NCBI GenBank assembly: GCA_021372535.1
Contig: JAJFUH010000112.1
Span: 1,034-65,033 of the forward strand
DNA from: a bacterium
Lineage (GTDB): Bacteria; Latescibacterota; Latescibacteria; Latescibacterales; Latescibacteraceae
Reading direction: 5' to 3'
DNA length: 64,000 nucleotides
How positions within the stretch are numbered: position 1 is the stretch's first letter; every line of letters starts with the position of its first letter. The notes under the pieces are model-generated. The model made no database searches and was not told where the DNA came from. It saw only the letters and a program-made list of their open reading frames with translations. Of this stretch, positions 16,707-58,825 are shown piece by piece. The position numbers and the translations under genes are program-made.

Positions 16707-17288
16707 ATGAACTCATCAGTTCGCATCCATGTATTTCTTTCGCTTTTACTGCTCGCGTTTCTGCTTGCCTGCAGTAATAGTGAAGACAGCCCGATCGGAC
16801 CCGGTGAAGTAAATGTCATTTCCGGCATGACGTTTGTTTCGATCCCTAGCGGGACTTTCCGGATGGGGGATGAGGATGGCTATCTTTCGGATGAGTGTCG
16901 CCCTGTCCATACCGTGACGGTATCGTCATTCGAGATGAGTGTATATGAAGTGACGAACGCCCAGTATGCGTCATACCTGAATGAGGCGCTGTCGTCGGGC
17001 ATTATCAAGGTATCGGAGAATGTTGTCTTGGGCAAAGGTGGTGAGTACGATGATCAGCCGTATATTGACATGTATTATCCGTACGATGCGGACAATACAT
17101 GTTGGATCGGTTATAGTTCCGGCGTATTCGGTGTGTCGAGTGGTAAAGAGAACTGGCCGGTAGTGAACGTGACGTGGTATGGAGCGAAAGCTTTTGCACA
17201 GTACTTAGGTTTTGTGTGTGTCCTGCCCGGGAGTATCGAGGCATCTAATACCCGGTGCAACAGATTTCGTGTAGGGCGGTACTCCTGA
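16707..17288 (+). CDS. Lipoprotein with an FGE-sulfatase (SUMF1-like) domain that appears C-terminally truncated. Possible pseudogene.
   Basis: It has a lipobox (LLACSNS) and the blocks FRMGDEDG..RPVHTVTVSSFEMSVYEVTNAQYASYL and NVTWYGAKAFAQYLG. The ORF ends where the paralogous domain in the STK (47686-50190) continues with RLPTEAEWEYAARGG. The downstream frame has no FGE similarity. Confidence 0.5.
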   Translation: MNSSVRIHVFLSLLLLAFLLACSNSEDSPIGPGEVNVISGMTFVSIPSGTFRMGDEDGYLSDECRPVHTVTVSSFEMSVYEVTNAQYASYLNEALSSGIIKVSENVVLGKGGEYDDQPYIDMYYPYDADNTCWIGYSSGVFGVSSGKENWPVVNVTWYGAKAFAQYLGFVCVLPGSIEASNTRCNRFRVGRYS

Positions 17289-39116: not shown

Positions 39117-40892
39117 TTACACGATTTTTTCCGTATCGACAACCATCACGATACGGTTGGTATCCTGCAGAGGAGCATAACCCGCGACCGGAGGCTGTTC
39201 CGTCGCGGATGTGATGGTGCCGTGCGGGAGTACTCTGATACCGATAACACTATCGACACGGGTGCCGGTGATGCGATTCTTCCCCGTGAGCACGATTATG
39301 CGCTCTTTCAGCGGTTCCCGTGGGCGTTTCGCGGCGCGTGATCCCGGTTTTTTCGCGATATCGACAAGGTGAATGACTGTCTCGCCGTACCGGAGGACGT
39401 TTGCGGGAAGCTTGTCCGTGCCCTGCATGCCCGGCAGAAGCGACGAATGAAGAATCTCCTTTACCGTATCAGCCGGAAAGCCGTAATACACATCGTCAAC
39501 CACGGCGATAACGTATCTCCTGTCATCCCGGGATTCACGGGTGTCAGCCTTCTCTGCTGTTCCCGCAGCAATATCACTGAAATACTTCGTGTTGACACAG
39601 TACAGCGGTTCCGTACCGCCGTCAATTTCAACCGCGTGCCCCAAAATCGGCTCTTTTCCGGAGGATTGTGCGTTCTCCGATACCGTCGCGGAAAGAAACC
39701 GTGAGACGGAGCTCACGAGCAGTCCGGTTCTGGTGTTGGCCCCTTTCAGGACGAGGATACGGGATTGAGGAGTAATGGCGAGTTTCCCGGAACCGAGGAG
39801 CACTCCCATATCAAAAACAGGGAGATTTTTGTCCGTTATATGAGATATTCCCCCGGGATAAGCCGTTTCAGACGAAACCGGGGATATGCCCGAAGAATCA
39901 GTAATCGAATCGAGTTCGTCCGCAGCGATTCCATATGATTCTTTTCCGGCCTGAAACATGAGTATTTTCATCGTCCCGGTTTGAGGGAAAGAGGGACGTG
40001 TAACCGCAGTTTTCGGCGCCGGCGCGGGTTTTTCGCGTTCCCGTGGCTTTTCTTTTTCTGCCGGAACAGCGATAATTTCAGGTTTTACGGTTTTTTCCGC
40101 TATAATTTCCTGTGCAGGGGATTTCTTTTCGATACGGGTTTCGGGTACTGTTTGTTTCACGGCGGCGGGAGTTATTCCGGCCGTGCCCGACATTTCCTTG
40201 ATGAATGCATCGAAAGTTTCGCGCGGAGTACGCTCGATGTTCAGCAGAGCGGCAGGCTGATCCTTGATCATTTTTCCGACAGCATTGACGAATACACGGC
40301 GCTGGAACAGGAGCGATTCCCCCTGAAGCGGAAGAGCCACAAAGACATCGCCTGATTCAGCGGGCGCCGTATCGAGACCGAATCCGAAAATGTTTCTGCC
40401 GAATGTTCCTAGTGCATGGGCGGCAGATCGCCCATCCACCGGTTCAGTGTAGAATATCCAGAGATGATATTCACCCTTGCCGCCTTCGGTTACCTCGATG
40501 AGGGACGGAATATTTTTCCCCTGTAATTCCCCGGCAAACTGTTTTGCCTTGGTAAACGGATGATCGAGCTGGTCGGAAAGAATGAATTTGACCACACTCC
40601 ACGAGGTTTTACCGGATTTGGAAAGCGGATTGACTCTGACCGTGATATCTCCGGCGCAATGCTGAGCGACAGCCTCGTCCAGGGAGATTTCAGTCCGCTC
40701 GAAACGGCCTTCTCCCTCGATCTCGAACGTATCGACCGTCCGGCAGAACACATCAATCATGATATCCGCAGGAATGGAGGATTCGGATGCGCCCTTGTGC
40801 TTCTTTTGGGGCTTTTTTTCGATTATTGTCCGGGCTAAATCCGACCGCTTCGTAAAGTAGTCATCCCTGCTTTTAAACCGTCCCGGGGTCAT
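39117..40892 (-). CDS. Multidomain protein: an unassigned N-terminal domain of about 250 aa, a Pro/Lys-rich linker, and two tandem CheW-like domains (ParP-like candidate)
   Basis: CheW-like block 1 is MKILMFQAGKESYGIAADELDSI...VFDMGVLLG. Block 2 is RYVIAVVDDVYYGFPADTVKEILHS...HLVDIAKK. It is translationally coupled (4-nt overlap) to the upstream ParA-like ATPase. Confidence 0.55.
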   Translation of the reverse strand: MTPGRFKSRDDYFTKRSDLARTIIEKKPQKKHKGASESSIPADIMIDVFCRTVDTFEIEGEGRFERTEISLDEAVAQHCAGDITVRVNPLSKSGKTSWSVVKFILSDQLDHPFTKAKQFAGELQGKNIPSLIEVTEGGKGEYHLWIFYTEPVDGRSAAHALGTFGRNIFGFGLDTAPAESGDVFVALPLQGESLLFQRRVFVNAVGKMIKDQPAALLNIERTPRETFDAFIKEMSGTAGITPAAVKQTVPETRIEKKSPAQEIIAEKTVKPEIIAVPAEKEKPREREKPAPAPKTAVTRPSFPQTGTMKILMFQAGKESYGIAADELDSITDSSGISPVSSETAYPGGISHITDKNLPVFDMGVLLGSGKLAITPQSRILVLKGANTRTGLLVSSVSRFLSATVSENAQSSGKEPILGHAVEIDGGTEPLYCVNTKYFSDIAAGTAEKADTRESRDDRRYVIAVVDDVYYGFPADTVKEILHSSLLPGMQGTDKLPANVLRYGETVIHLVDIAKKPGSRAAKRPREPLKERIIVLTGKNRITGTRVDSVIGIRVLPHGTITSATEQPPVAGYAPLQDTNRIVMVVDTEKIV

Positions 40893-41635
40893 ACAAGCTC
40901 CTCGACAAGATTCCGGAAATCCTGCGCGCCGATACTGTCAGGATCGTATTCCATGATACTCTGACCCATTGCGGAGCTTTCACCTATTTTGACGTTCCGC
41001 CGTATCTTCGTTTTTGCAAGCGTGTCACCGAAAAAGGAGTGAAGCTGTTTCACCATTTCGCCCGCAAGCACCGTATTGGAATACATGGTCGGTATCACAC
41101 GGCCGATTTGAAGCCGTGCATTGTAATTATCACGAACCGCATCGATGGTTTCGAGCAGCTTGTTGGTTCCGATGACGCTCAGGTGTTCGCAGGCCACTGT
41201 TATATAGACCTCGTCGCTTGCCACAAGGCCGTTCACCGTGAGCGCGCCGAGGGAAGGCGGGCAATCGATGAGAATGTGGTTAAACCGTTCGGTCACGGGT
41301 TCAAGCGCTTTTTTCAGTCGGCGTTCATATCCGATAGCCGCAAAAATCTCGCGTTCGATGGAAGCGAGCAGGATATTGGATGGCACGAGCCAAACATTTT
41401 TGTGAATAGGCGCGATAACATCCTCGATCACCGCGGTCCCTCTGATGACATCATATACGGTCCGCTCGAACGAATCGGGATCGCTTCCGCACCATGATGT
41501 CAGGTTACCCTGGGGATCGAGGTCTATAAGGAGAACAGAACGGCCTTTCCGGGCAAGCTCGAATCCTATATTAACCGTACAGGTGGTTTTACCTACTCCA
41601 CCTTTCTGGTTGGCAAATACTGCAATTCTTTTCAT
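40889..41635 (-). CDS. ParA/MinD-family ATPase (ParC-like candidate)
   Basis: The deviant Walker A is ANQKGGVGKTTCTVN. DLDPQGN follows. The start was chosen at MKRIAVF. It is immediately downstream of pilC. Confidence 0.75.
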   Translation of the reverse strand: MKRIAVFANQKGGVGKTTCTVNIGFELARKGRSVLLIDLDPQGNLTSWCGSDPDSFERTVYDVIRGTAVIEDVIAPIHKNVWLVPSNILLASIEREIFAAIGYERRLKKALEPVTERFNHILIDCPPSLGALTVNGLVASDEVYITVACEHLSVIGTNKLLETIDAVRDNYNARLQIGRVIPTMYSNTVLAGEMVKQLHSFFGDTLAKTKIRRNVKIGESSAMGQSIMEYDPDSIGAQDFRNLVEELV

Positions 41636-41790
41636 GCAACCTCCGCGCCGGTATCTGTCATCCGGCAATATCGCACAATATATCGGACAAATGAAAGCCG
41701 TCAGATATGCTGAGCGTTCATAACGACATTACCCACATGTATGGGATGAAAACAGTATGAATGGCCGGCGTCCGAACAGCAATTTCATCA

Positions 41791-42999
41791 TTAACCCTGT
41801 ACCGCATCGATCATACTGAACATCGGCATGTACATAGCGATGAGCACGCCGCCCATAATAACCGCAAGAATGACGATGATTATAGGTTCCATGAGACCTG
41901 TCAGAGTCTCGACCGCCGCATTCACTTCTTCGTCATAAAAGTCGGCAATTTTGTTGAGCATCTGATCCAGACCACCCGATTCCTCCCCCACTGCAACCAT
42001 CTGGATAACCATGGGCGGGAAAACATTGGTTTCCTTCATCGGCTCGGTAATGGTTTTTCCTTCGGAAATCGCCGTAATCATGCTCTGCAATGCCCGGCGA
42101 ATAACCATGTTCGAGGCTGTTTTTGCGGTAATTTCGAGGGCTTCGAGAATTGATACACCACTCGAGAGAAGGGTTCCGAGTGTCCGTGAAAACTGGGCAA
42201 CTGCGCTTTTTTTAGCCAGGTCTCCGAGGGCAGGGATTTTCAGTACCATTTTATCGGTATTGAAACGGCCTTTCGGGGTTTTCCGGTATTTGATGAACGC
42301 TGTGAAAGCGGCGACTATTACCGCGACAATGGGAAGTATTTTTTTCGGTGTTTTCATGAAATTTGACATATTGACAACTATCTGGGTAGGTGCGGGAAGT
42401 TTCGCGCCTGCATCGAGGAACATCTTCGTAAATACCGGGATGACAAAAATCAGAAGTGCTGCTACGGCGCCGACTGCTACAATCGAAATAATGATGGGAT
42501 ACATCATTGCGCCTTTGATTTTACGGTTGAGAGCCGCCGCTTTTTCGAGAAACGAAGCGAGACGCAGCAGGATTGTATCGAGGATACCGCCGATTTCGCC
42601 GGCAGCGATCATATTGACAAATAATTCGGGAAATACTTTCGGATGTTTTGCCAGGCTGTCGGCAAGTGAATTCCCTGACTCGACGCTTTCGGTTACGGAA
42701 ATGAGAACCTTTTTAAAGTTCGGGTTTTCCGACTGTTCGGAAAGAATGTTCAGACACTGTATAAGCGGAAGACCCGCGGAGATCATCGCGGAAAACTGAC
42801 GGGCAAAATTGGTGATGTCCTCGGCTTGTACTCCGGTGCCGATCTGTAAACTGAATCCACCTGATTTTTTCTTGACTTTTGTAACGATAATGCCCTTTGA
42901 CCGGAGTAATTTGTAGACTTCCTCCTGGCTGGCGGCGGAAATTTCCCCCTTTACTCCTTTACCGCCTCTTGCTTTACCTTCGTATAAGAAATCCGGCAT
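41791..42999 (-). CDS. pilC: Type IV pilus assembly inner-membrane platform protein (GspF/PilC family)
   Basis: 402 aa with two repeated GspF domains, each carrying the conserved GxxLxxxL..P motif. It has three TM segments. Confidence 0.8.
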   Translation of the reverse strand: MPDFLYEGKARGGKGVKGEISAASQEEVYKLLRSKGIIVTKVKKKSGGFSLQIGTGVQAEDITNFARQFSAMISAGLPLIQCLNILSEQSENPNFKKVLISVTESVESGNSLADSLAKHPKVFPELFVNMIAAGEIGGILDTILLRLASFLEKAAALNRKIKGAMMYPIIISIVAVGAVAALLIFVIPVFTKMFLDAGAKLPAPTQIVVNMSNFMKTPKKILPIVAVIVAAFTAFIKYRKTPKGRFNTDKMVLKIPALGDLAKKSAVAQFSRTLGTLLSSGVSILEALEITAKTASNMVIRRALQSMITAISEGKTITEPMKETNVFPPMVIQMVAVGEESGGLDQMLNKIADFYDEEVNAAVETLTGLMEPIIIVILAVIMGGVLIAMYMPMFSMIDAVQG

Positions 43000-43051: not shown

Positions 43052-44725
43052 TTATGCGGTCATTGTCTCACGAATCACTTCTTCATAATCGACTATTCCC
43101 TGTTTCATCTTGAGAATCGCATCCATACGAAGCGTAAGCATACCGTCCTTGATAGCCTGATCCCTGATGTCGGCTGTCGAACCGCCATCCAGAACAACCT
43201 GTCTGAGCGTGGGGGTCATCAGCATGACTTCATAGGCGCCGATTCTTCCTTTTTTGCCGGTCCCGTTGCATTTCGGACAGCCGACAGGTCCGTATATGAC
43301 GTCATCTTTAGTTATATTCAGTTCTTTGTGAAGCTCTTCGGGCACTTTAATGGGTTTTTTACATTCCTTGCAGAGACGGCGTAAAAGCCGCTGCGCCTGA
43401 ATGAGGTTTACCGCCGATGCTATCTGGAATGGCGCTATTCCCATATCGATCATACGGGTAACCGTGCTCGGCGCGTCGTTGGTATGGAGAGTGGAAAGCA
43501 CAAGGTGTCCGGTCAGGGCTGCTTTCACTGCGATACTGCCGGTATCGATATCACGAATCTCGCCGATCATGATGATATTGGGGTCCTGGCGGAGAAACGC
43601 CTTGAGCGCCGCGGCAAAAGTCATGCCCACCTCGGTACGGACAAGAACCTGATTGATACCGTAAAGATTATATTCCACAGGGTCTTCCGCTGTCATAATG
43701 TTGACACCAATCTGATTGATATGGCTCAGCGCCGAATAAAGCGTGGTGGTTTTTCCCGAACCGGTCGGCCCCGTTACCAGAACCATACCGTACGGCGATT
43801 CGATAGCATGCAAAAAATCGTGTAATGCTTTCTCAGTGAAACCGAATGTTGTGAGGTCAAGGGTAAGATTGCCCTGGTCGAGAATACGCATGACGATCTT
43901 TTCACCAAACAGCGTCGGGAGTGTCGATACACGGAACTCGACAGATTTTGAGGGCATACGGATTTTAATACGGCCGTCCTGGGGAACGCGGCGCTCGGAT
44001 ATATCGAGATCGCTCATAATCTTGACTCTCGATATAACCGCGGCTTTGAGTTTATTGGGAAGTGGAGGCATTTCCTGCAAAACACCATCGAGACGGAATC
44101 TGACACGGACCTCTTTTTCGAAAGGCTCGATGTGGATGTCCGATACACCCTTCTTGACCGCATCGACGAGGATGGAGTTTACGAGACGTACCAACGGCGC
44201 GTCGTCGGCATGGACACCCTCGACCTCCTCCTCGGTTTCCTCGACGACCTCGAGATCCGAGCCCTCGAAATCACTGAGAATGCTCGACATTTCCTCGGTT
44301 GTTTTATATATCTTGTCAATAATAGTACGAATCGAGCTTTCGGTTGCTATAAACGGTTCAATTTTATATCCGGTGATGAGCTTTATCGAATCAAGGGCGA
44401 ACATATTGGTGGGATCGGATATTGCCACCTTGAGTGTTTTCCCGTCACGGGAAAAGGCAATGACCTGAAATTTGATCGCTACTTCAGCGGGTATGATATT
44501 GACAACATCCTCGTCGATCTCATCGAGCTTCAGCTCGACGATTTTTATGCCCAGCTGCTTGGCAAGCGCGCTGTAAAGATCATGTTCGTTAACATATCCG
44601 AGCTCAATCAGGTTACCGCCAAGGTTTCCGCCCTTTTCCCGCTGCCGCTTGAGTGCATCCTCAAGCTGCTGCACCGATATTTTCTTGTCCTTGACAAGAA
44701 GATTGCCGATTCGCGCCTCAGCCAT
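43052..44725 (-). CDS. pilB: Type IV pilus assembly ATPase (GspE/PilB family)
   Basis: An N-terminal GSPII_E_N-like region, the Walker A VTGPTGSGKTTTL, Asp/His boxes, and the C-terminal tetracysteine motif CPKCNGTGKKGRIGAYE. Confidence 0.85.
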   Translation of the reverse strand: MAEARIGNLLVKDKKISVQQLEDALKRQREKGGNLGGNLIELGYVNEHDLYSALAKQLGIKIVELKLDEIDEDVVNIIPAEVAIKFQVIAFSRDGKTLKVAISDPTNMFALDSIKLITGYKIEPFIATESSIRTIIDKIYKTTEEMSSILSDFEGSDLEVVEETEEEVEGVHADDAPLVRLVNSILVDAVKKGVSDIHIEPFEKEVRVRFRLDGVLQEMPPLPNKLKAAVISRVKIMSDLDISERRVPQDGRIKIRMPSKSVEFRVSTLPTLFGEKIVMRILDQGNLTLDLTTFGFTEKALHDFLHAIESPYGMVLVTGPTGSGKTTTLYSALSHINQIGVNIMTAEDPVEYNLYGINQVLVRTEVGMTFAAALKAFLRQDPNIIMIGEIRDIDTGSIAVKAALTGHLVLSTLHTNDAPSTVTRMIDMGIAPFQIASAVNLIQAQRLLRRLCKECKKPIKVPEELHKELNITKDDVIYGPVGCPKCNGTGKKGRIGAYEVMLMTPTLRQVVLDGGSTADIRDQAIKDGMLTLRMDAILKMKQGIVDYEEVIRETMTA

Positions 44726-45021: not shown

Positions 45022-45900
45022 TCAGACAAGTACCTCAAACAGTTTATGCCTTCCGGTGAATCCTTTTAAATCGAAAAAGCCGATACACCGGGTTTTTATC
45101 TGGGTATCGTTCGAAATCATTTTTTGCACCGTTTCCGCGATGAAGATACGGTCCGATCTTGGCATGTCGTCCTTTTTAATACCCATAACCGTTTGATGCA
45201 TATCGTCGATTTTAACCGATTCGACGCGAAAAGCCATATCGACAGCCATACCCCGGCGGTCACCATCGGGAAGCTTGAAAGTCTCGCCGTAATTGATACC
45301 GATCCGGACACGGATTCCGGCGGATGATTTCTGTTCCTTCAGGTCGGTTAAAAAGCCGATAGCCAGATTGACCGCGGGTTTAACCTTGCTGAAAACGAGC
45401 ATGAAACCGTCACCGGTATTTTTTATGAATTCCGCGGGATTTTCCTTGAGATTTTTTTTCAGACAGAGCAGCAGAGTATTTTTCACTTTACTGGCGATAC
45501 GGTCACCGACAAGCTGGGCGATATTCGAGGAACCGACCATATCGATAACGACGATTGCTTCGGGTGTTGTTTCCATCGCGGAATCGGGTTCGGCAAACCG
45601 CTCTTCGGTGCGCCGCGACACTTTCAGAAACGTATGCCCGAGTCTGAAAATATCTCCCGGATTGACCACTACGGGAGCGGTGACCGGATCGCCAAGAAGA
45701 AACGTGCCGTTCTTGCTTTTACTGTCCTGAAGGGTAATCACCCCGTCTTCAGCTACCTCCAGCACGGCGTGGGTACCCGATATATATTTATCATCGGGTA
45801 AAACAATATTTGATTCGGAGGAACGGCCGATGCTGTATGTGCCGGGTATCAGGGTTGTCCGTGTACCCTCTTTTTCGCCATTCAGAATAAATAAATACAT
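45022..45900 (-). CDS. FHA-domain protein fused to a class III adenylyl/guanylyl cyclase catalytic domain
   Basis: The FHA block is YSIGRSSESNIVLPDDKYISGTHAVLEV...NGTFL. The cyclase blocks are VVIDMVGSS, NTGDGFMLVF and RVRIGINYGE. Confidence 0.7.
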   Translation of the reverse strand: MYLFILNGEKEGTRTTLIPGTYSIGRSSESNIVLPDDKYISGTHAVLEVAEDGVITLQDSKSKNGTFLLGDPVTAPVVVNPGDIFRLGHTFLKVSRRTEERFAEPDSAMETTPEAIVVIDMVGSSNIAQLVGDRIASKVKNTLLLCLKKNLKENPAEFIKNTGDGFMLVFSKVKPAVNLAIGFLTDLKEQKSSAGIRVRIGINYGETFKLPDGDRRGMAVDMAFRVESVKIDDMHQTVMGIKKDDMPRSDRIFIAETVQKMISNDTQIKTRCIGFFDLKGFTGRHKLFEVLV

Positions 45901-46250
45901 GACTGCCTGTACCGTTTTTTAAGAAATTGACGTTAAAAAAGATATTTCAATATATCCGTTTATTTGTGAAATTGTCAACCGGTATGTGTTGTTAAAAGAA
46001 CGCCGAAACCACCTTTTCACGAGAGCGATGTAAAAAATGCTTTGATTTATTGCCATTACGGGCATGTATAACGTCGCTTCAGGATGTCGGCTGACAGCAT
46101 TACGGAATATTTAAGGGATTTATTATCAGGATTTTCAGACTGTTTCTAATATAAAGCATAAAGAAAAAGCTTGACAAGCATAAATATAAAAAATATAGTT
46201 CCATATGAAAAAGTACGCTAATAAATTCATTTATTTTTGGAGTAACCACT

Positions 46251-46793
46251 ATGGAAGAAGACTGGCGTATCACACTGAGTTGCCTTGAATCGCCCGATCC
46301 GTCATTTGTCGGAACCCAGAAAGTATTCACACAATCTCCAATCAACATCGGACGCGCCGAAAACAGCGATATGGTAATACCGGATCTGGCTGTGTCGCGA
46401 AACCACGCAATACTCAGGATCACGGCGGATTATACACGTGTTTTTATTACCGATATGAGCACCCATGGGACAGAAGTTTCCGGGAAAGTCGTTCCAAAAG
46501 GCAGGGGCAGCGGTTTCACCCTCGAGAATGGCGATACGATCAAGCTGGGAGAAACCGTGTTACAATACGAGTTGAAACTGAAAACGAGTGTTCAATCCAC
46601 CATGGTCGGTAAAATTGACCGGAGTTTCCTTGATAAGCCCCCCGAGCCGGTTGTTGCCGAAAAAATCGAAGAACCGGTAATACCGTTAAAAACCGTCGCA
46701 CCCGCTGCCGCCCAAAAGAATTTTAACCCGATTTATCTCGGCATAATCATTATCAGCCTCGCGCTTATCATATACCTGTTAATAAAAGGCTGA
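46251..46793 (+). CDS. FHA-domain protein with a C-terminal TM anchor
   Basis: The FHA block is INIGRAENSDMVIPDLAVSRNHAILRI...HGTEV. The C-terminal hydrophobic helix is IYLGIIIISLALIIYLLI. Confidence 0.65.
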   Translation: MEEDWRITLSCLESPDPSFVGTQKVFTQSPINIGRAENSDMVIPDLAVSRNHAILRITADYTRVFITDMSTHGTEVSGKVVPKGRGSGFTLENGDTIKLGETVLQYELKLKTSVQSTMVGKIDRSFLDKPPEPVVAEKIEEPVIPLKTVAPAAAQKNFNPIYLGIIIISLALIIYLLIKG

Positions 46794-46839
46794 TATTCAC
46801 GAAATTGAGCACGATTTCCTTTTCAGGAGAAACCATAGA

Positions 46840-47685
46840 ATGGTTACCATGACAACCGCGGGTTTGACAGACACCGGCATGTCCAGAACAAATAATGAAG
46901 ATACGTATTTAACTGATAAATCATTGCTTATCGTGGCGGATGGTATGGGCGGAGCCGCGGCGGGTGAAGTTGCAAGCCAGCTTGCGGTAGAAGAGATATC
47001 AAAAAAACTCAGGGGAACAGTGTATGTTTCGGACGACCAGATACGGAAAGCATTTAACGACGCCATCTGGAATGCCGATGCAACAATAAAAGAACGTACC
47101 CGTAAAAATCCCGATCTCAGAGGGATGGGAACGACCATAATGGCCGCTCTCCATCTCGGCGACCGTCTTCTTATAGGATTTGTGGGTGACTCACGCGCGT
47201 ATATCGTCACTCAGAAAAATCAGGATTCTCCTGCCTCGTCACGGCCCGATGTTCCGAAAGTCGATACAAATGCCGCAACCGCAATCTTACAGAAAATCAC
47301 CGATGACTTTCAGCCTTCATCTAAGGAAAAAGGAAGCATCCAGCGTATAACGAACGATCATTCTGTTGTCATGGAACTTGTCAATTCCGGTGTCATACAG
47401 GAAGATGATATCCGCACCCATCCCATGAGAAACCGAATCACACGGTGTGTGGGGAATCTGACCGATAAGGGTCCCGACTTTGTCTGGCATACCATAGCCA
47501 ATGACGATACGCTTATTTTGTGTTCGGACGGATTATGGGAAATGATTCACGAAGACCTGATTTTCGCCATCGTGAAATCGTCGAAAACTGTCGAAGAAAT
47601 GTGCAAGCGGCTTATCAATGCGGCAAATGATGCCGGCGGAGCCGATAACATCACCGTCATCACGGCTCAATTCAAAAAGCAGTAA
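46840..47685 (+). CDS. PP2C-family Ser/Thr protein phosphatase
   Basis: The PP2C motifs NEDTYL, VADGMGG and a GGADNITVI tail are present. Confidence 0.8.
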   Translation: MVTMTTAGLTDTGMSRTNNEDTYLTDKSLLIVADGMGGAAAGEVASQLAVEEISKKLRGTVYVSDDQIRKAFNDAIWNADATIKERTRKNPDLRGMGTTIMAALHLGDRLLIGFVGDSRAYIVTQKNQDSPASSRPDVPKVDTNAATAILQKITDDFQPSSKEKGSIQRITNDHSVVMELVNSGVIQEDDIRTHPMRNRITRCVGNLTDKGPDFVWHTIANDDTLILCSDGLWEMIHEDLIFAIVKSSKTVEEMCKRLINAANDAGGADNITVITAQFKKQ

Positions 47686-50190
47686 TCATCGCTGTTTCCC
47701 ACCCCGCGCCAGACGGAATCCCGTGTGCGGTCCCGTGTAATCGGGAGGATGCGGTCCCCGTATCGAGTTCCTGATAAGCTTGGCATTCGAATTCCATCCG
47801 CCTCCCCGAACAACACGCCCTGGTCCCTGCGAAGCTCCCGCGGGATTCACCACAAGCCCGGATTGATACGGTCCGAACCAGTCGGCGCACCATTCCCACA
47901 CATTTCCCGCCATATCGTTCAGACCGAACTGATTGGGAGGAAATGTGCCTGCTCTGGTCAGTGATGTCCGCCAGCCTGTCCCGTTATTCCAGTCGTTCCC
48001 GAAATTGGCGCGTTTTTCGGGAGATTCGTCGCCCCATGGGTACAGTTTACCCTCCAGCCCGCCGCGCGCGGCATATTCCCATTCGGCCTCGGTCGGGAGA
48101 CGGGCGCCGGCCCATTGTGCGAATGCGGCCGCATCGGACCACGATACGAATACAACGGGACGGTCGGGACGAGCCTGCTGGCTTCCCCATGATGGAGGCT
48201 CCGCGTGACCGGTTGCCTTGAGAAATGCCGCATACTGCACCACGGTTATCTCATCACGGGACATTTCGAAAGCCGATACGGTTACCCTGTGTACCGGCCG
48301 GACCTGCAGCTGCTCCTCGATATCGCCCTGGGAATCACCCATCATGAACGTACCGGCAGGAATCCGTATCCAGACAAGCGCGACCGTTTCCTTCGGTTTT
48401 GTTTCCTGTTTTTCGGGCTTGATTTCCGGTTTCACGAGAACCGCAACGGGCTGATCCGTCGCTTGATTCCTGGTTTTTGCTGGCGGTGCAGTGGTTTTTT
48501 GAGGAGCCTTATCTTCCGGTTTTTCCACGGGTTTTTTCTCATCGGTGCGCACAGGGGATGACGATGAAGCCGGGCGTGATTCAGCCGGAGATTTTTCCTC
48601 GGTCCGGGTCGATAAAGTTTCCGGTTTTTTCTCCGGGGTTTTTTGTGCCGGTGAAGCGGAAACGGGCGGCTGTTGCTGCGTTTTTACCGTTTCCTGCTGT
48701 TTTTCCGCGGAAGGCAACATGCGTTCCGGTTTTTTTTCGCTGTCCTTTTTTACCTGAGGCGAACTATCCGATGACGGTTTCGTCTGTTCCCCGGCGGGAG
48801 TTTCACCGGTTTTTTGCAGTGGTTCCGTCTGAGATTTGGTACCGCCCGAAGATGCCGTTACCGGCGGCGATGATTTCTTCCCCTGCGGAATAACATAGTA
48901 GAGCGCCCCCAGAACAACTCCGATCATGCCCAGCGACAGGAGAGCATACATCAGCATGGAAGCGCGTTTCTTCTCTTTCTGTGGTTTTCCTGCCGCTTTC
49001 CCCGCGCTGGATTGAACCGGTCCCGTGAGGGTATCTCCAAGCTTTCCGGAAGCCTCGGGGGAATCCTTGCCCGGCTTTTCCACTGTCTTTCCGGCGGATA
49101 CCGCTTCAGCCGGAAGTATTACCGTTTCGGCAAGAGGTGTTTTATCCTCTTCCGGGACAGGTTGTCCGTATACGGGTTGAGGAGAAGCGATGGTTTCGGA
49201 CGACTCGGACTGTTCCGGCTGGTTTTCGAGGATTTGCTCATGGAGCGCCTTGCCAAGCTCGGCTGCCGATTGATACCTGTCTGCAGGACTCTTGGCAATA
49301 GCTTTCATGATAATAGCGGAAAGTTCTTTCGGTACTTCCCTGTTGATGGTTTCCGGCAGCGGCGGGAGCACGTTCACCTGATTGTAGAGAAGCGCGGTAT
49401 GATCGAGACCGAAGAACGGCGATTTCCCGACCGCCATCTGGTACAGGACGCATCCCAGACTGTAGATATCCGACCTGCCGTCAACCTCTTCCCCCTTTAT
49501 CTGCTCGGGGCTCATGTACATGGGAGTGCCGATGAACATGCCCGTCTGCGAAAGCTTCGCGCTGCGCTGGGCTTTTGCTATCCCGAAATCGACGACGATC
49601 GGCTGCCGTTTTTTATTGACGATGATATTTTCGGGTTTGATATCACGGTGGATCACTCCCTTCTCGTGGGCATGCTGGAGCGCGAAACTGACCATGACCG
49701 CAAGACGGGCAAGCACCCGGGGTTTGAGCGCCCCGCTCTTTTTGATGATCTGGTCGAGGGGTACTCCCTCGATAAAAGCCATCGAATAATAGTAAAATCC
49801 GCCGCTTGTATCGACATCGTGAATCTGTATAATGTTCGGATGGAGAAGCTTGGCTGCAATTTTTGCTTCACGCAGGAAACGTTTGGCAAAGTTTTCATCG
49901 TATGACATCTCCTGCGGGAGCAGTTTAAGTGCGACAAGGCGTTCGAGACGGCTGTCCTCGGCAAGAAAAACAATTGCCATGCCTCCCCTGCCTAGTTCAC
50001 GGATAATTCTGTACCGGTGCGAGACCGCGGCCTTGAACCGCTCGATGTAATCCCCTTCCCCGTTCTGTGAGGTTTTTTCCTGAGCCCCCGACGGTTTTCC
50101 GGGAGTGATCTCCCTGGGGAGTTTTTCGCCGCAGTTGGTACAAAACTCTGCTTCATCCCTGTTTTCTGTTCCGCATTTATCGCAAAACAT
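47686..50190 (-). CDS. Hanks-type Ser/Thr protein kinase with an N-terminal zinc ribbon, a TM segment and a C-terminal FGE-sulfatase domain
   Basis: The zinc ribbon is CDKCGTENRDEAEFCTNCG. The kinase subdomains are GRGGMAIV..ALK, HRDIKPENI, DFGIA and SPEQ. A Pro/Lys/Thr-rich linker precedes the TM segment (LMYALLSLGMIGVVLGALYYVI). The FGE blocks are RLPTEAEWEYAARGG and GNVWEW. Confidence 0.85.
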   Translation of the reverse strand: MFCDKCGTENRDEAEFCTNCGEKLPREITPGKPSGAQEKTSQNGEGDYIERFKAAVSHRYRIIRELGRGGMAIVFLAEDSRLERLVALKLLPQEMSYDENFAKRFLREAKIAAKLLHPNIIQIHDVDTSGGFYYYSMAFIEGVPLDQIIKKSGALKPRVLARLAVMVSFALQHAHEKGVIHRDIKPENIIVNKKRQPIVVDFGIAKAQRSAKLSQTGMFIGTPMYMSPEQIKGEEVDGRSDIYSLGCVLYQMAVGKSPFFGLDHTALLYNQVNVLPPLPETINREVPKELSAIIMKAIAKSPADRYQSAAELGKALHEQILENQPEQSESSETIASPQPVYGQPVPEEDKTPLAETVILPAEAVSAGKTVEKPGKDSPEASGKLGDTLTGPVQSSAGKAAGKPQKEKKRASMLMYALLSLGMIGVVLGALYYVIPQGKKSSPPVTASSGGTKSQTEPLQKTGETPAGEQTKPSSDSSPQVKKDSEKKPERMLPSAEKQQETVKTQQQPPVSASPAQKTPEKKPETLSTRTEEKSPAESRPASSSSPVRTDEKKPVEKPEDKAPQKTTAPPAKTRNQATDQPVAVLVKPEIKPEKQETKPKETVALVWIRIPAGTFMMGDSQGDIEEQLQVRPVHRVTVSAFEMSRDEITVVQYAAFLKATGHAEPPSWGSQQARPDRPVVFVSWSDAAAFAQWAGARLPTEAEWEYAARGGLEGKLYPWGDESPEKRANFGNDWNNGTGWRTSLTRAGTFPPNQFGLNDMAGNVWEWCADWFGPYQSGLVVNPAGASQGPGRVVRGGGWNSNAKLIRNSIRGPHPPDYTGPHTGFRLARGGKQR

Positions 50191-50535: not shown

Positions 50536-51807
50536 TTGATTGTGTCAGTGTTTCGGGTTCTGACATATGTTTTGACTGTCATCGTCCTCTTGATACCTGC
50601 TGCCGTGAGCGCGCAGGATGACAGCGAATACGGCCGTATCCTTTCCATCACCGACAAAACGGTCAATGTAAGTTTTGCAAATAAAACCGTGGGTGTGGGT
50701 GAAGAAGTGGAATTCTGGCGGTTCACGAAAATTGTCGATCCGGTGACCGGCGATATCCGCGGCGGGAAAAAAACTATTGTCGCATATGGTGTTGTCGATG
50801 ATATCGGCGTCGGAAAAGTCCAGGTTACGGTAACCGGGATGGTGCTCAATGGCAGAATTGCCATGCTCGACAGGGTTCTTGCCACCGGCAAGGGGAAACA
50901 GATCGTACGGACGCAGAAAATCGGTACGATACAGGAGCTCAAGGATGACGGCGCGATAGTTATCGATCTCGGAACAGAAGACGAAATCAGCGAAGGCGAC
51001 GAATTTCTCATTCAGCGCACGGAAACGGTTGTCGATCCCGAGACGAAAGAGGTGACCGTAAAAAACCAGGTCGATGTGGGAAGAGGACGGGTTCAGACGG
51101 CGGATAAAAAGACAAGTGTCGCTTCCCTTGTCCAGTTATTACCGGGAATGGAGATTCAGAAAACAGATAATGTCGTCTTCGACAAGCTGAAAACAGAAGA
51201 TGAAATCCCACTGTCCGGGAGTCCCGTGACGATCGACAGCCTCCAGAAAGAAATCGTCGAATTACAGCGCGAGGTTACGGTTTTGAAAGCCGCTGTGGAC
51301 AGTCTCGGCCAGGAACACCTGATCTTCAAGGATGAAATAGAAACGGTGCTTTCGCAGCTCATGGCGGGCGATATAAAAGGTACGCGGATTATCCTCAAAA
51401 ACGACGAGCCGATAACACGCGCCGATTCGCCGGAAGTGTTCGCGTCGTATAAAAGAGCCCTCGATACCTGTCTCGACCGTAAATTCAGGCAATCCATAGA
51501 ACTGTTTCATGCATTCATGAAACAATATCCCGCATCGAAACTGACCGAGAACTGCCGTTACTGGATAGCCCAGTCGTATTTCAGCATGGGAAATTTCGAG
51601 ACGGCAATCGAAGGATTCAGGGATGTCATCGACGAAAAGCGGTACACGCACAAGGATGACGATGCGGCAATAATGATCGCGATAACCTATTACAAGCTCG
51701 GGAAACGTGACGAGGCATTGCAGGCTTTCAATAACTTCGTCAAACTTTACCCGTCGAGCGAGTACCGGAAAATAGTCGAAAACTGGATTAAAAAATTATC
51801 CGCATAA
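50536..51807 (+). CDS. Secreted protein with a C-terminal CpoB/YbgF-like TPR domain
   Basis: It has a signal peptide and a coiled-coil segment (EIVELQREVTVLKAAVDSL). The C-terminus has repeats of the YbgF-type YPxSxxxxxAxYWxA pattern. Confidence 0.5.
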   Translation: MIVSVFRVLTYVLTVIVLLIPAAVSAQDDSEYGRILSITDKTVNVSFANKTVGVGEEVEFWRFTKIVDPVTGDIRGGKKTIVAYGVVDDIGVGKVQVTVTGMVLNGRIAMLDRVLATGKGKQIVRTQKIGTIQELKDDGAIVIDLGTEDEISEGDEFLIQRTETVVDPETKEVTVKNQVDVGRGRVQTADKKTSVASLVQLLPGMEIQKTDNVVFDKLKTEDEIPLSGSPVTIDSLQKEIVELQREVTVLKAAVDSLGQEHLIFKDEIETVLSQLMAGDIKGTRIILKNDEPITRADSPEVFASYKRALDTCLDRKFRQSIELFHAFMKQYPASKLTENCRYWIAQSYFSMGNFETAIEGFRDVIDEKRYTHKDDDAAIMIAITYYKLGKRDEALQAFNNFVKLYPSSEYRKIVENWIKKLSA

Positions 51808-51894
51808 GCGGAACAAGATTTAATTGAACACGGATTTTTAGCGGATTTTCATATCTTTTAAATACGAACAATTACGCGTTACTAAATATAGTAT

Positions 51895-51962
51895 AAATAA
51901 TTTTTTATATCTATTTGTGTCTTGGTATCTCAGTGGTGAAATATTTTTATTCATAATCCAGG
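51895..51962 (+). repeat. Fourth copy (D) of the conserved intergenic element, immediately upstream of the TPR lipoprotein gene
   Basis: tataaataattttttatatctaTTTGTGtcTTgGTatctcagTGGTgAAatATTTTtATtcATAAtCCA. The ATG follows 7 nt later. Confidence 0.55.
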
Positions 51963-51969
51963 ATCGCTT

Positions 51970-53112
51970 ATGAGACGGTTAACAGTATTTATCGTTATTC
52001 TTGTTTTTTTAGCGGGCTGCGCTTCCGAAGTGACCTACTACAAACGGGGCGTCGGCTATGAAAAAGCGGGAAAATACACAAAAGCGCTGAATTCGTATAA
52101 AAAATCACTGAAGCGCGATCCCAATTATGCCCTCTCCTTTTATGGCATCGGAAGCGTGTATGTCAAAACAAAACGCTGGGATGAAGCGCTCCAGAACCTG
52201 CTCAGGGCAAACGATCTCGGGATAGACGATCAGGATATTCACATGCTGCTCGGCTCCGTGTATGAATCACTCAACCAGATCGACCTCGCGGGAGAAGAAT
52301 ACGGCAAGGCGATAAAAGCCCGTCCCGATGATGTGCTCACCCATATGACACTCGGCGCGATGCTCGAAAAAAACGGCGATTACACGGGAGCGCTTACGGA
52401 ATACAACAGCGCCATCGAGATCGCTCCCGATTTTCACGAGGCGTATTTCCACAGCGCGCGCATGCTTTTTACCCTCGGCAACTACGTAAAAGCCGAAGAA
52501 GCCTACATTCAGGCGCTCGAATTCAGGCGTAAATATCCCCAGGCGCAGAATAACCTCACTGTCCTCTACCTGAGAACCAACCAGATCATGAAAGCGCTCG
52601 AATCAGCCACTAAAACACTCGATATCGATTCGGGATATGCGCCGGGGATTGTGAATATGGGTGTGGTTCATGAGGTCATGGGGAATAAAGTACTGGCGGA
52701 AGAATTTTACCGTAAGGCAATCGCTCAGGCGAACGATTACGACATGGGCCACTACCGTCTGGCGCTCTTTCTGCTCAAGGAAGGTAAAAACGAAGAGGGC
52801 CGCTATCAGCTTGAAACATCGCTCCAGTATAATCCGAATCTTGCTCCGGCGTATAACGAGCTGGCGATACTCGAACTCGATGGCGGGAATTACCAGAATG
52901 CGCTCGAACTCCTGAAAAACGCCGTCCGGGTCGATTCCACCTATGCCTCAGCTTTTTACAACATGGCGGGGATATACGCCAACACCGGTAAGTACGACCG
53001 TGCGGCCAAAGCATATACGGACTATCTGGCTAAAGCGAAGTCGCCGGAGGATTCGCTCGAAGTTATTTCCCAGATACGGATTCTTCTGTCACGCACTGGC
53101 ACAAGCCGGTAA
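51970..53112 (+). CDS. TPR-repeat lipoprotein
   Basis: A lipobox (FLAGCAS) followed by at least eight TPR units. Confidence 0.65.
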   Translation: MRRLTVFIVILVFLAGCASEVTYYKRGVGYEKAGKYTKALNSYKKSLKRDPNYALSFYGIGSVYVKTKRWDEALQNLLRANDLGIDDQDIHMLLGSVYESLNQIDLAGEEYGKAIKARPDDVLTHMTLGAMLEKNGDYTGALTEYNSAIEIAPDFHEAYFHSARMLFTLGNYVKAEEAYIQALEFRRKYPQAQNNLTVLYLRTNQIMKALESATKTLDIDSGYAPGIVNMGVVHEVMGNKVLAEEFYRKAIAQANDYDMGHYRLALFLLKEGKNEEGRYQLETSLQYNPNLAPAYNELAILELDGGNYQNALELLKNAVRVDSTYASAFYNMAGIYANTGKYDRAAKAYTDYLAKAKSPEDSLEVISQIRILLSRTGTSR

Positions 53113-56033: not shown

Positions 56034-56405
56034 TTATCCAATAATTTCGGTAATTTTTGCATTCAGTGTTTTTGCATCAAACGGCTTTACGATATAGCCA
56101 TTTACACCCGATTTTATTGCGCTGACGATATCTTCTTTCATATTCCGCGTTGTAACCATGAGAATCGGAATACTTTTAATTTTAGGATCTGCCCTCACTG
56201 CTTCGGTAAGCTCGAGTCCGTTCATATTTGGCATGTTCCAGTCGGTCATGAGCAGATTGAAATCACCTGCCAGTAATTTTGCCAGGGCGTCCTTACCATC
56301 CTCGGCTTCTTTGACCTGAGAGTATCCCGCTTTAATAACTGTGTTGACCAGAATACGTCGCATTGTAGGCGAATCGTCGACAATCAATATTTTAAGATCG
56401 GGCAA
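56034..56405 (-). CDS. cheY: CheY-like single-domain response regulator
   Basis: 123 aa with LIVDDS, the MTDWNMP phospho-acceptor Asp and a YIVKPF Lys motif. Confidence 0.85.
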   Translation of the reverse strand: MPDLKILIVDDSPTMRRILVNTVIKAGYSQVKEAEDGKDALAKLLAGDFNLLMTDWNMPNMNGLELTEAVRADPKIKSIPILMVTTRNMKEDIVSAIKSGVNGYIVKPFDAKTLNAKITEIIG

Positions 56406-56445
56406 TTTTCTATCTCCTTTTAAGGGTTAAAGCATATATTATCAG

Positions 56446-57840
56446 TTATTTCGAAAGACGAGCAACACTGCCGTCAATCAATCTGAATTGAGACGGCCCC
56501 AGGGTGTCCTCGACGGTGAGCCACTGGTGGCCGATATAAACCTGTAATTTGGGAAACGCACTGACAGCGGCAGAGACAAAAACCTTATCGAGATCTTTCT
56601 GGTCATCGAGGAGTTTTTGTTTGTATTTTTCCAGGGATTCAATTTTTTCCGGCAATGATTTCCGTGTCTCTTCAAGTTTTTCAAGGAGTTGAGCTTTGTC
56701 AGGCGGAAGATGGCCTTTACCATCTATTTTAATTTTATAGAGATAAATAATACTTTTTTCTAATTTCTCATCGGATTCCCGTACTTTTGCCAGTTCTTCA
56801 TCCGTATTTTTCATACGGTCGGCTAATTTTGGATCGATGCCGACCTTTATTACAGTAGGAGTACATGCAACCGAGCCGAGCCGAGCCGTTTCGACTGATG
56901 TTTTTGCCTCGCATACACCACCGACAATGGTACTTTTAGCGCCTTTCGCCATAATCGATCCTCCCGCAAACAGCCTGGCATGGTATGAATCACCAAGAAT
57001 GATAATATCGCGGTCGGCTCTAAGGCACTGGTTTTCAACAAATTTGACTGTTATATCCCTGCCAGCCTGAATCAATGAATTACCGCTTCCGGCACAACCG
57101 CCGGCAATTATGACATCATTACCACTGATTACAATCGCATCCTCTACATTTTCCCGTATTTCAACATCACCCTCGGCTTCAACCCTGAATCCGGACCTGA
57201 CAGAACCGTTTATTTTTACTGTTCCCTTAAATACAACATTACCTGTTTCATAATCGACATCACCCTTGACTTCATGAACCGGGGCTATCTGTACGACACC
57301 TTTTATAAACTGAACCTCACCATCAATGGCCGCGATTATCAGATTGGGATCGTTATCGGCAAAGGCAGTTCCCTTTCCCAGAACAATCTGAAAATCTTTT
57401 CCGGTCAATCCGGGAATCTGGTTTCCCATGACATCAAAGCCGGCTTCTCCGATTGTCGGGGGAATTTTTCTGAAAAGTTTCTGCCCCTTGACAGCCGACA
57501 CCACTTCTCCCAGATTACGGAAATCCATACTTCCGTTTTCGCGTTCGATAGCTTTTGTTTTTTTGTTAAAATCAATATATGCTTCGATTTTGGCTTTCTG
57601 GCCGTATTGCGGTTGTACCGCTTCGGCTATGACAACGGAGGGCATGGGTATTTTCGATTCGCACATTCTCTGGATGATATCTTCCTTAATTCCTGCCTTT
57701 ATTCCTTCTGCTTTCAGTTTAAGATTAACATCATTAACCGAAAGAATTTTACCTTCTCCATACGGGGGAGTGTAATTTGCCACCACTTTCATTTTATTGT
57801 CGGCAATTTTTATTTTAATTGCGGCATCAATATCAGCCAT
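56446..57840 (-). CDS. FapA-like protein (DUF342, flagellar assembly protein A family)
   Basis: 464 aa. The central region has the repeated beta-helix-like G-x-V/I pattern. There is a C-terminal coiled coil. It sits between cheZ-like and cheY. Confidence 0.55.
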   Translation of the reverse strand: MADIDAAIKIKIADNKMKVVANYTPPYGEGKILSVNDVNLKLKAEGIKAGIKEDIIQRMCESKIPMPSVVIAEAVQPQYGQKAKIEAYIDFNKKTKAIERENGSMDFRNLGEVVSAVKGQKLFRKIPPTIGEAGFDVMGNQIPGLTGKDFQIVLGKGTAFADNDPNLIIAAIDGEVQFIKGVVQIAPVHEVKGDVDYETGNVVFKGTVKINGSVRSGFRVEAEGDVEIRENVEDAIVISGNDVIIAGGCAGSGNSLIQAGRDITVKFVENQCLRADRDIIILGDSYHARLFAGGSIMAKGAKSTIVGGVCEAKTSVETARLGSVACTPTVIKVGIDPKLADRMKNTDEELAKVRESDEKLEKSIIYLYKIKIDGKGHLPPDKAQLLEKLEETRKSLPEKIESLEKYKQKLLDDQKDLDKVFVSAAVSAFPKLQVYIGHQWLTVEDTLGPSQFRLIDGSVARLSK

Positions 57841-58021
57841 TACAGCCCCCTGAGTTTCACCGTATTAAATTTTCAAAAAGTATCACTCCGGTGTTGAAAC
57901 AGTGACATCGTTTGATCTCATGCCGAACATGTCTCGGAATCAGTTCCGAAGTGTGGCACCGGCTGGTATATGCCGGGTACCAAACTGTAGTAAATATCGA
58001 TAATACAGCATGATGGTTATA

Positions 58022-58825
58022 CTACGCATCTTTATTTTTATCTGATTCGTTCAATTTATTGAGCAGTGCATTTATATCCGGCTGACCATCCGCTCCATAA
58101 ACTATTTCATCTTTCATATCAGCAGTTCCTCCGGTATCACCGGGCTGGTCGGCGGATTCTGTATCGTCTATATTTTGCGTGGTCTTTATCATTTGTGCTT
58201 TTTCCAGGTATTCGTCGGCTATTCGCTGTGATTTTGCAGACCGGTCAAAATCGAACTCCGCATTACTGTCAAACGCAGCCCCAGTTTCCTTCAGCCGTCT
58301 GATTCCCTCTTCATCGAACCCCTGGAGCAGGTCACCCAGTTTATTCTGAACTCTTCCCATTACCTGCGCAATGCTGTTTATCTGCTGCGTGGTGATATCC
58401 TGGAACTGGAGAGCATTCATGATAGAAAACAGATCATCCTGACTTCCCTCGACTTCTCCCCGAATCACCGCTGTTTTTTCTTTCATTACATCCGGATTAC
58501 ACGATTCGGCGGCATAGAGCGTTTCAATTTCATCGAGCGCGGTAGTCATTGTATTCAAGCGATTAATGACATTATCGACTTTATCCATCACTTCCGTTGT
58601 GGCCATTTCGGTTGCGCTCGTAACTTTACTGAGTTTTTCCGAGGCGGAGGGAATCATTTCCGATGATTGATGCAGATCCGAGTGTATCGAATTCAATAAG
58701 GGGACGACTTCTTCGATAAAATAGACCAGTTTAGCGATCTGCGGCATGTATTTTTTTGTGGTATCAAAGTAGCCTTTAATCGCGTTGAAGCTGTTAATCA
58801 GCCTGGTTATTTCAGCTTTTTCCAT
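58022..58825 (-). CDS. CheZ-like CheY-P phosphatase
   Basis: ALQFQDITTQQINSIAQV matches the CheZ catalytic helix (FQDLTGQ, Asp and Gln). The protein is helical and acidic, and its C-terminus is acidic like the CheY-binding peptide. Confidence 0.55.
   Translation of the reverse strand: MEKAEITRLINSFNAIKGYFDTTKKYMPQIAKLVYFIEEVVPLLNSIHSDLHQSSEMIPSASEKLSKVTSATEMATTEVMDKVDNVINRLNTMTTALDEIETLYAAESCNPDVMKEKTAVIRGEVEGSQDDLFSIMNALQFQDITTQQINSIAQVMGRVQNKLGDLLQGFDEEGIRRLKETGAAFDSNAEFDFDRSAKSQRIADEYLEKAQMIKTTQNIDDTESADQPGDTGGTADMKDEIVYGADGQPDINALLNKLNESDKNKDA

Follow-up and report, generated by a model that had tools for sequence, protein, structure and literature searches.

The only structurally worked-out example of an FHA-gated nucleotide cyclase that we found in a literature search is Bdellovibrio bacteriovorus DgcB (PDB 6HBZ), in which binding of a phosphopeptide to the FHA domain rearranges the GGDEF dimer into its active state (PMC6733907). 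Here, we analyzed a comparable arrangement in a 64,000-nucleotide (nt) stretch of DNA from an uncultured Latescibacteraceae bacterium (phylum Latescibacterota; GenBank assembly GCA_021372535.1, contig JAJFUH010000112.1, positions 1,034 to 65,033 of the forward strand), the whole of which is hereafter called the window. One gene of the window encodes a soluble protein with an FHA domain followed by a class III cyclase domain (FHA-cyclase), and beside it lie genes for an FHA protein with a transmembrane (TM) anchor (FHA-TM), a PP2C Ser/Thr phosphatase and a membrane Hanks-type Ser/Thr kinase. On balance, we lean towards reading this locus as a Hanks-kinase signaling module with a cyclic nucleotide output, most likely cyclic AMP (cAMP). 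As in DgcB, an N-terminal FHA domain would gate a C-terminal dimeric nucleotide cyclase upon binding of a phosphothreonine (pThr) peptide, with a kinase presumed upstream, and the biological context involves type IV pili. The two proteins differ in their output, as DgcB produces cyclic di-GMP (c-di-GMP) with a GGDEF domain whereas the window protein has a class III cyclase, and in the FHA ligand: DgcB binds its own N-terminal tail, which has no counterpart in the window protein, where the FHA domain starts at residue 1. In addition, the kinase of DgcB is not known, whereas here a kinase and a phosphatase are encoded alongside.

The closest solved catalytic domain is that of Mycobacterium avium Ma1120 (PDB 4WP9/5D0E), to which the cyclase domain is about 25% identical. 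The K/D substrate pair, the Arg and the metal Asp residues are common to both. Ma1120 has Ala164 instead of the transition-state Asn, whereas the window protein has Asp at this site, and Ma1120 occurs without an FHA domain or kinase context. A connection between cAMP and pili is known from Synechocystis sp. PCC 6803 Cya1, where cAMP controls type IV pilus-dependent motility (PMC4284465). The likeness of Cya1 to the system proposed here lies in a class III cyclase, cAMP and the connection to pili, although its phylum differs. Cya1 carries an N-terminal FHA domain, for which our literature search gave nothing usable as confirmation, and the Ser/Thr kinases SpkA and SpkB affect motility in the same strain; we know of no clustered kinase, PP2C and FHA set and of no pilB adjacency at cya1. 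The CyaB-Vfr circuit of Pseudomonas is another connection between cAMP and pili.

Clusters of a Hanks kinase, a PP2C phosphatase and small FHA proteins are found in the actinobacterial fhaA-fhaB-pstP-...-pknA-pknB locus and in the Fha1/PpkA/PppA set of the type VI secretion system (T6SS), where the FHA proteins dock on pThr in the juxtamembrane region of the kinase or are substrates themselves. However, these clusters control cell-wall growth or T6SS firing without a cyclase output, and the ectodomains of their kinases consist of PASTA or other modules, whereas the ectodomain here resembles formylglycine-generating enzyme (FGE) and FHA-TM is tail-anchored. Kinases with a C-terminal DUF323/NirV (FGE-sulfatase) domain, such as those of chlamydiae, were described in 2005 (Krupa & Srinivasan, PMC1262709). 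They share the kinase and FGE-sulfatase-like architecture of the window kinase, but belong to another lineage and were described without an FHA-cyclase partner, and a zinc ribbon has been added in Latescibacterota. The literature search returned nothing usable on a published mechanism for FHA-class III cyclases and, to our knowledge, direct pThr gating of a class III adenylate cyclase has no biochemical demonstration. The components and their pairwise combinations (FHA-cyclase fusions; kinase, PP2C and FHA clusters; kinase-FGE-like fusions) are already known. New here are a well-conserved Latescibacterota instance with a fixed Asn-to-Asp change in the active site and synteny with pilB, and the repeated ties of an under-annotated cyclase subfamily to Hanks kinases.

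The original prediction described four adjacent phospho-signaling genes encoding pThr readers (the two FHA proteins), an eraser (the PP2C phosphatase) and a writer (the kinase). All four open reading frames (ORFs) were recovered at the predicted coordinates by ORF listing and translation of the 64-kb window, and their Pfam domains agree with this division of roles. The FHA-cyclase gene (45022..45900, minus strand) encodes 292 aa, matches Pfam FHA and, weakly, Guanylate_cyc, and has no TM segment by hydropathy. Its FHA domain (aa 1-95, 45616..45900, minus strand; Pfam E = 2e-16 over aa 22-88) begins at the first residue without an N-terminal tail. In a set of 33 orthologues with 50-84% identity, which was used for all residue conservation of this protein, the pThr-binding residues G25-R26, S41..H44 and N64-G65 are invariant or nearly so, and the domain thereby presents the GR, SxxH and NG residues expected of a pThr reader. 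The class III cyclase homology domain (aa 110-292, 45025..45573, minus strand) scored 24.0 bits against the Guanylate_cyc cut-off of 21.9, with a match that spans aa 115-221 and profile positions 10-131 of 183. The match is partial because of an insertion of ~20 residues at aa 229-250, between helix alpha-4 and the next strand, which sets the protein apart from Ma1120 and is common to its own subfamily. A profile built from the 33 orthologues matched the solved adenylyl cyclase Ma1120 with E = 4e-15 and also matched Rv1900c and other class III cyclases. An AlphaFold2 model of the FHA-cyclase had a per-residue confidence score (pLDDT) of 83.6, with a short, disordered linker (aa 102-108) below 50, and Foldseek superimposed it on Ma1120 with a TM score of 0.92 and a root-mean-square deviation of 1.9 Å; its other top matches were class III cyclases and full-length DgcB (FHA-GGDEF). 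The weak Pfam call is confirmed by profile and model, both of which predict a class III cyclase fold. Altogether, 85 orthologues of ~292 aa were found, nearly all from Latescibacterota or metagenomes; homologue names assign the window to Latescibacterota (WS3), and the identical protein at NCBI (P0001) is labeled 'FHA domain-containing protein [bacterium]'.

Residue roles in the active site were assigned through the alignment with Ma1120 and the mutagenesis study of that enzyme (PMC4215837). The metal ligands D120 and D164, which align with the metal Asp residues of Ma1120, are each present in 32 of the 33 orthologues, whereas the adenine-specifying pair K160 and D214 (aligned with K101 and D157 of Ma1120), the arginines R199 and R225 and the phosphate Lys K279 are invariant. 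In class III cyclases, such a K/D pair specifies ATP (PMC4215837). The exception is the canonical transition-state Asn position, seven residues after D214 and four before R225, which is occupied by an invariant Asp (D221, nt 45238-45240). Strict retention of all other catalytic residues speaks for a site that still binds nucleotide and metal and that probably is catalytic, using ATP. The original prediction would have been undermined by a loss of catalytic residues; with the residues kept, apart from D221, a pseudo-cyclase is not indicated by the sequence of the window protein. We regard D221 as a deviation rather than a disqualification, because the active cyclase Ma1120 has Ala at this position (PMC4215837). 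A relative of the FHA-cyclase, P0099 (found in L018 and L019, two of the loci compared below), lacks the metal Asp, the GDG motif, the Arg and the Lys, and reads E-K-N-Q-E-E-K-E across the signature positions. By these residues, it is a clear pseudo-cyclase inside the family, in contrast to the window protein.

The membrane kinase (834 aa, 47686..50190, minus strand) begins with a zinc ribbon (Pfam Zn_Ribbon_1, aa 2-24, CxxC...CxxC, 50119-50187) that is kept in its Latescibacterota orthologues, followed by a Pkinase domain (aa 60-307, 49270-50013; Pfam E = 7e-48). The best NCBIfam score was to the PknB family (343 bits), and the Hanks catalytic motifs GRGGMAIV, VALK, HRDIKPEN, DFG and SPEQ are all present. 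Hydropathy identified a single TM helix (aa ~411-433, 48892-48960) preceded by KEKKR, which places the kinase domain in the cytoplasm and the FGE-sulfatase-like domain (aa 607-829, 47704-48372; Pfam E = 1.5e-61) outside; a spacer rich in Pro, Lys, Ser and Thr lies between helix and ectodomain. The ectodomain had been proposed as an extracytoplasmic FGE-sulfatase ligand sensor. Its outside location and FGE-like fold held up, with alignments to bacterial and human FGE at E values of about 1e-42 to 1e-40 (best 1.6e-42). An FGE enzyme was rejected: the C-terminal CxxxxC loop 'LCHDSYCNRY' of Streptomyces coelicolor and human FGE reads 'W---NSNAKLIR' here, and without the catalytic Cys pair the domain is not an FGE enzyme. 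We infer a non-catalytic FGE-like binding or sensor module; PvdO and PorK/GldK are other non-catalytic members of this fold. In an alignment of six kinase orthologues, the linker between kinase domain and membrane could not be aligned except for two Thr islands (within 49021..49131, minus strand), its only conserved columns. These are AETVIL (aa 354-359, 49114-49131), with the pattern (E/K)-T-[VLM]-[ILV], and GDTLTG (aa 385-390, 49021-49038), with an invariant G-D-T, both of which are candidate pThr docking sites.

Several further observations concern the kinase and its surroundings. In L001 (5583-7956) and L002 (3546-5919), which hold the same sequence in two assemblies, the kinase is divided over two reading frames: one ORF, of 511 aa, carries Pkinase and the TM segment, and the other, of 216 or 297 aa, the FGE-like domain. 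This reflects either a genuine splitting of the gene or a frameshift within the low-complexity spacer. Divergent from the kinase gene, two exported TPR proteins are encoded at 50536-53112 (plus strand), one with a signal peptide, a weak FlgT_C match and a YbgF/CpoB-like C-terminus and the other with a lipoprotein-type signal (LAGC). Their genes are syntenic with the kinase in seven distinct loci (L001/L002 counted once), and in the periplasm the proteins could partner with the FGE-like ectodomain. A second FGE-sulfatase-like ORF (193 aa, 16707-17288, plus strand) has a lipoprotein-like leader and looks truncated relative to the domain.

FHA-TM (180 aa, 46251..46793, plus strand) carries an FHA domain at aa ~20-105 (Pfam E = 1.8e-14) and one C-terminal TM anchor (aa 158-180, nt 46722-46790, by hydropathy). 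Its pThr-binding loops conserve GR and SRxH, with a partial deviation in that every orthologue has His or Tyr instead of the Asn. An SVQ(S/A)T motif directly after the FHA domain (aa 113-117, nt 46587-46601) is invariant among orthologues and, together with the two kinase Thr islands, offers the best candidate phospho-sites of the locus, by analogy with the juxtamembrane pThr docking established for PknB-type systems. The nearest named NCBIfam matches of the FHA proteins include FhaB/FipA. The PP2C phosphatase (281 aa, 46840..47685, plus strand) matched Pfam PP2C_2 (E = 4e-16) and PP2C (E = 3e-14), both above cut-off, and fell just below the cut-off of the NCBIfam Stp1/IreP family (227 versus 230 bits). 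It has no TM segment by hydropathy, and its translation contains RTNNED, DGMGG, SDGLWE and ADNITV, which include the metal-binding Asp residues. With a gap of 46 nt, the PP2C gene is probably co-transcribed with that of FHA-TM.

The FHA-cyclase gene is divergent from the FHA-TM and PP2C genes across a 350-nt gap, and the kinase gene converges on the PP2C gene with abutting stop codons, which rules out a single operon for the four genes. The divergent region (45901..46250) holds one sigma-70-like site per direction, TTGACA-18-TATATT towards the FHA-cyclase (45978->45949, minus strand) and TTGACA-17-TATAGT towards FHA-TM (46171-46199, plus strand), each scoring 11/12. The boxes of the FHA-TM/PP2C promoter (TTGACAA-N17-TATAGT) are kept in all 10 aligned Latescibacterota loci. 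No CRP-like palindrome or other regulator site was found in the divergent region, where the intergenic alignment conserves only the -35 and -10 boxes, and an Rfam scan of the whole window returned no RNA family, so that no riboswitch is indicated in the long gaps that flank the FHA-cyclase gene. An ORF of 107 aa (46100-46423, minus strand) that overlaps the promoter region and the start of FHA-TM had no family match and was taken as spurious.

In the scheme that we propose, the membrane kinase would respond to a periplasmic cue through its non-catalytic FGE-like ectodomain and phosphorylate Thr residues, with its own juxtamembrane islands and the SVQ(S/A)T motif of FHA-TM as lead candidates. 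The soluble FHA-cyclase would read the pThr through its FHA domain, leading to its recruitment to the membrane and/or to pairing with a second copy. Because class III cyclases require dimerization for activity, this step would switch on cAMP synthesis. The PP2C phosphatase would then erase the phospho-mark and reset the system, and FHA-TM could either act as an adaptor at the membrane or compete for these phospho-sites. Since the FHA-cyclase has no N-terminal tail and its linker contains no conserved Thr among the 33 orthologues, the ligand of its FHA domain should come from another protein.

Conservation of the locus was examined in metagenome assemblies and GTDB species representatives probed with the window proteins by tblastn; the GTDB genome scan yielded 10 loci, all of them Latescibacterota, and a look-up of the exact FHA-cyclase sequence gave no contig. 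Synteny extends across Latescibacterota loci at 48-70% protein identity. Loci of sufficient length (L001, L005 and L010) contain the full block, in the order amidohydrolase-ROK, two periplasmic TPR genes, kinase, PP2C and FHA-TM, followed in the divergent direction by FHA-cyclase, pilB, pilC and genes for a ParA-like and a CheW-like protein. A lack of conserved association among the four genes would have spoken against the original prediction. The association is kept: of the 10 distinct loci that extend far enough upstream, all but L009 have FHA-TM and PP2C divergent from the FHA-cyclase, and eight of these nine also contain the kinase. The position of the FHA-cyclase gene directly upstream of pilB (43052..44725, minus strand) on the same strand was likewise borne out, and pilB follows the FHA-cyclase in eight distinct loci. 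PilB passed the NCBIfam equivalog cut-off for the type IV-A pilus extension ATPase (TIGR02538, 701.4 versus 675.65 bits), with GspE below its own cut-off (583 versus 630).

Beyond the phylum, the comparison was extended with an exhaustive search using the cyclase domain alone, from which 112 representatives were used for domain architectures and 117 members for residues. The cyclase domain is always C-terminal and its N-terminal partners vary, including FHA (15 of the 112 representatives), TPR (about 11), HEAT (about nine), Pkinase (seven) and CHASE2 (six); P0224 has FHA, Pkinase and cyclase domains all in one polypeptide. Comparative genomics of the fusion, suggested as a check of the original prediction, shows repeated fusions of the cyclase subfamily with FHA and with kinase domains. 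A Hanks kinase gene also lies immediately beside the FHA-cyclase gene in three of seven more distant cases that were looked up, with a gap of 19 nt in L015/L016, in L020, and in L017 (386-7523), where two kinase-TPR genes and a ClpB/ClpA-like AAA+ gene lie upstream of an FHA-cyclase, P0091, that keeps the canonical Asn. P0091 ends the apparent operon of L017, where the connection between the subfamily and Hanks kinases takes a different form. The most compelling case for this cyclase type as an output of Ser/Thr-kinase signaling comes from such fusions and neighborhoods, which arise repeatedly in unrelated settings. The cyclase domain escapes Pfam in all but 34 of the 112 representatives, and most other named homologues are labeled only 'FHA domain-containing protein'; public annotation misses the cyclase half of many family members.

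A number of observations weigh against a cAMP-producing kinase module, and they are considered here and in the following paragraph together with the explanations that they favor. At the active site, the transition-state Asn-Arg pair is incomplete, with R225 invariant and the Asn replaced by D221. This Asp is fixed in the Latescibacterota clade, whereas the wider subfamily has N in 76, H in 16, D in six, V in six and S in four of 117 members, and the activity of the FHA-cyclase may therefore be low or altered. Domain scans of the window proteins also revealed no cyclic nucleotide monophosphate (cNMP)-binding protein encoded in the window that could act as a receptor. The change might even kill catalysis and leave a scaffold, an FHA-controlled nucleotide-binding or dimerization module that regulates a partner such as PilB or the kinase directly; catalysis by mammalian cyclases is reported to require this Asn (Yan et al. 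1997, cited in PMC4215837), and P0099, with its metal Asp lost, illustrates such decay within the family. We nevertheless consider a dead cyclase unlikely, as strict conservation of all other catalytic residues in the 33 orthologues would be unexpected for one, and, in a subfamily whose typical signature is D-K-D-R-D-N-R-K, this one position varies and the others stay intact. Moreover, an Ala-to-Asn replacement in Ma1120 lowered the adenylyl cyclase activity drastically and eliminated that towards GTP, the guanylyl cyclase activity (PMC4215837). An active enzyme whose Asp forms part of an altered active site for another product (cGMP, a pyrimidine cNMP or other) seems very improbable to us. 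The invariant D221 together with an invariant F224 at the third specificity position, a weak generic match to the PADLOC PycC model (18.7 bits) and the residual guanylyl cyclase activity of Ma1120 (PMC4215837) would fit such an enzyme, but K160 and D214 form the adenine-specifying pair, the PycC match is marginal and the locus lacks an effector gene of the defence type. An anti-phage system of the Pycsar/CBASS type was excluded, with PADLOC giving only this PycC match and generic kinase matches and no effector-type neighbor.

The remaining points against the proposed module concern the unity of the locus. The orientations divide the four genes among at least three transcription units, and L009 keeps the FHA-cyclase and pilB with the kinase module separated from them. 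The conserved synteny also takes in unrelated neighbors (the TPR genes beyond the kinase, one of which encodes the YbgF/CpoB-like protein, and the amidohydrolase-ROK gene), and part of it may be simple vertical inheritance in one phylum; because of these neighbors and this single phylum, the synteny evidence alone is moderate. In L004, L013 and L014, unrelated genes take the place of pilB after the FHA-cyclase. Outside the phylum, four of the seven distant FHA-cyclase genes have no adjacent kinase gene: none lies within 5-13 kb in L021 and L022/L023, and two of the four are on contigs (L018, L019 and L024) too short to judge kinase adjacency. Two unrelated neighboring systems could account for much of this, with the kinase, PP2C and FHA-TM forming an envelope or division module like FhaB/PstP/PknB, perhaps together with the periplasmic TPR/CpoB-like proteins, and the FHA-cyclase answering to another kinase or serving pilB only. 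The FhaB/FipA matches of the FHA proteins would agree with such a split. We judge it to be quite unlikely, given that the FHA-cyclase is still divergent from FHA-TM and PP2C in the three loci where pilB is lost, that the promoter pair is conserved, and that members of the cyclase subfamily are repeatedly fused or adjacent to Hanks kinases in contexts that are not related. In each locus examined, the FHA-cyclase keeps at least one of the two blocks, which makes it the hinge between the kinase and pilus blocks.

For the kinase module with cyclic nucleotide output that we favor, the process downstream in Latescibacterota is most plausibly the assembly or expression of pili, as the module adjoins pilB-pilC. 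The gap between FHA-cyclase and pilB is 296 nt long and AT-rich, with no convincing terminator and only a weak promoter-like site, and pilC (41791..42999, minus strand) encodes a T2SSF platform protein by Pfam whose best NCBIfam match, PilC, was below cut-off. The N-terminus of PilB passed the MshE-type c-di-GMP-binding motif model NF053729 (61.7 versus 38 bits), which suggests that the pilus motor may itself be c-di-GMP-regulated, beside a putative source of cAMP. The possible control of pili put forward in the original prediction is in line with the pilB synteny in eight loci, a link drawn from synteny within one phylum and broken in the three loci noted above. Control of chemotaxis, also put forward, appears weak and speculative, based on a ParA/CheW-like pair after pilC and a distant CheY/FapA/CheZ-like group. 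The pair spans 39117-41668 on the minus strand. The gene for a ParA/MinD-type ATPase (40889-41668) shares 4 nt with the beginning of a second gene, whose 591-aa product has an N-terminal archaeo-eukaryotic-primase (AEP)-like region (PF22548 AEP-TOTE, E = 1.9e-13) and two CheW-like domains, an odd combination in one protein. The pair follows pilB-pilC in L001, L005, L007 and L010 and recalls the ParC/ParP pair that positions chemotaxis arrays. The other group, 6-8 kb away, is a run of genes (56034-58825, minus strand) for a 123-aa CheY-like receiver, for FapA (DUF342) and for a protein with weak likeness to CheZ.

Elsewhere in the window, GC content is low at 18000-22000 (0.38-0.40 versus ~0.50 elsewhere), around a gene for a TPR/TMTC-like membrane protein (17479-19296), and no ORF of at least 200 aa is found between 19.3 and 21.3 kb. 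The lowest GC content of the window (0.355) is at 58-60 kb.

The locus is a compact, co-expressible set of a kinase, a phosphatase, two FHA readers and a cyclase with specific candidate phospho-sites, and the proposed link from kinase to cAMP could therefore be reconstituted in vitro. Its main value is as a clean system for testing pThr gating of a class III cyclase. For uncultured Latescibacterota, the locus suggests how surface attachment by pili might be coupled to an external cue. More tentatively, and as something that we consider less likely than not, the divergent class III subfamily may be a dedicated Hanks-kinase output module across several phyla, of which the Latescibacterota version, with D221 fixed in place of Asn, would be wired to the pilus motor. 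If true, pThr-gated cAMP synthesis would be a general and hitherto uncharacterized route from kinase to second messenger.

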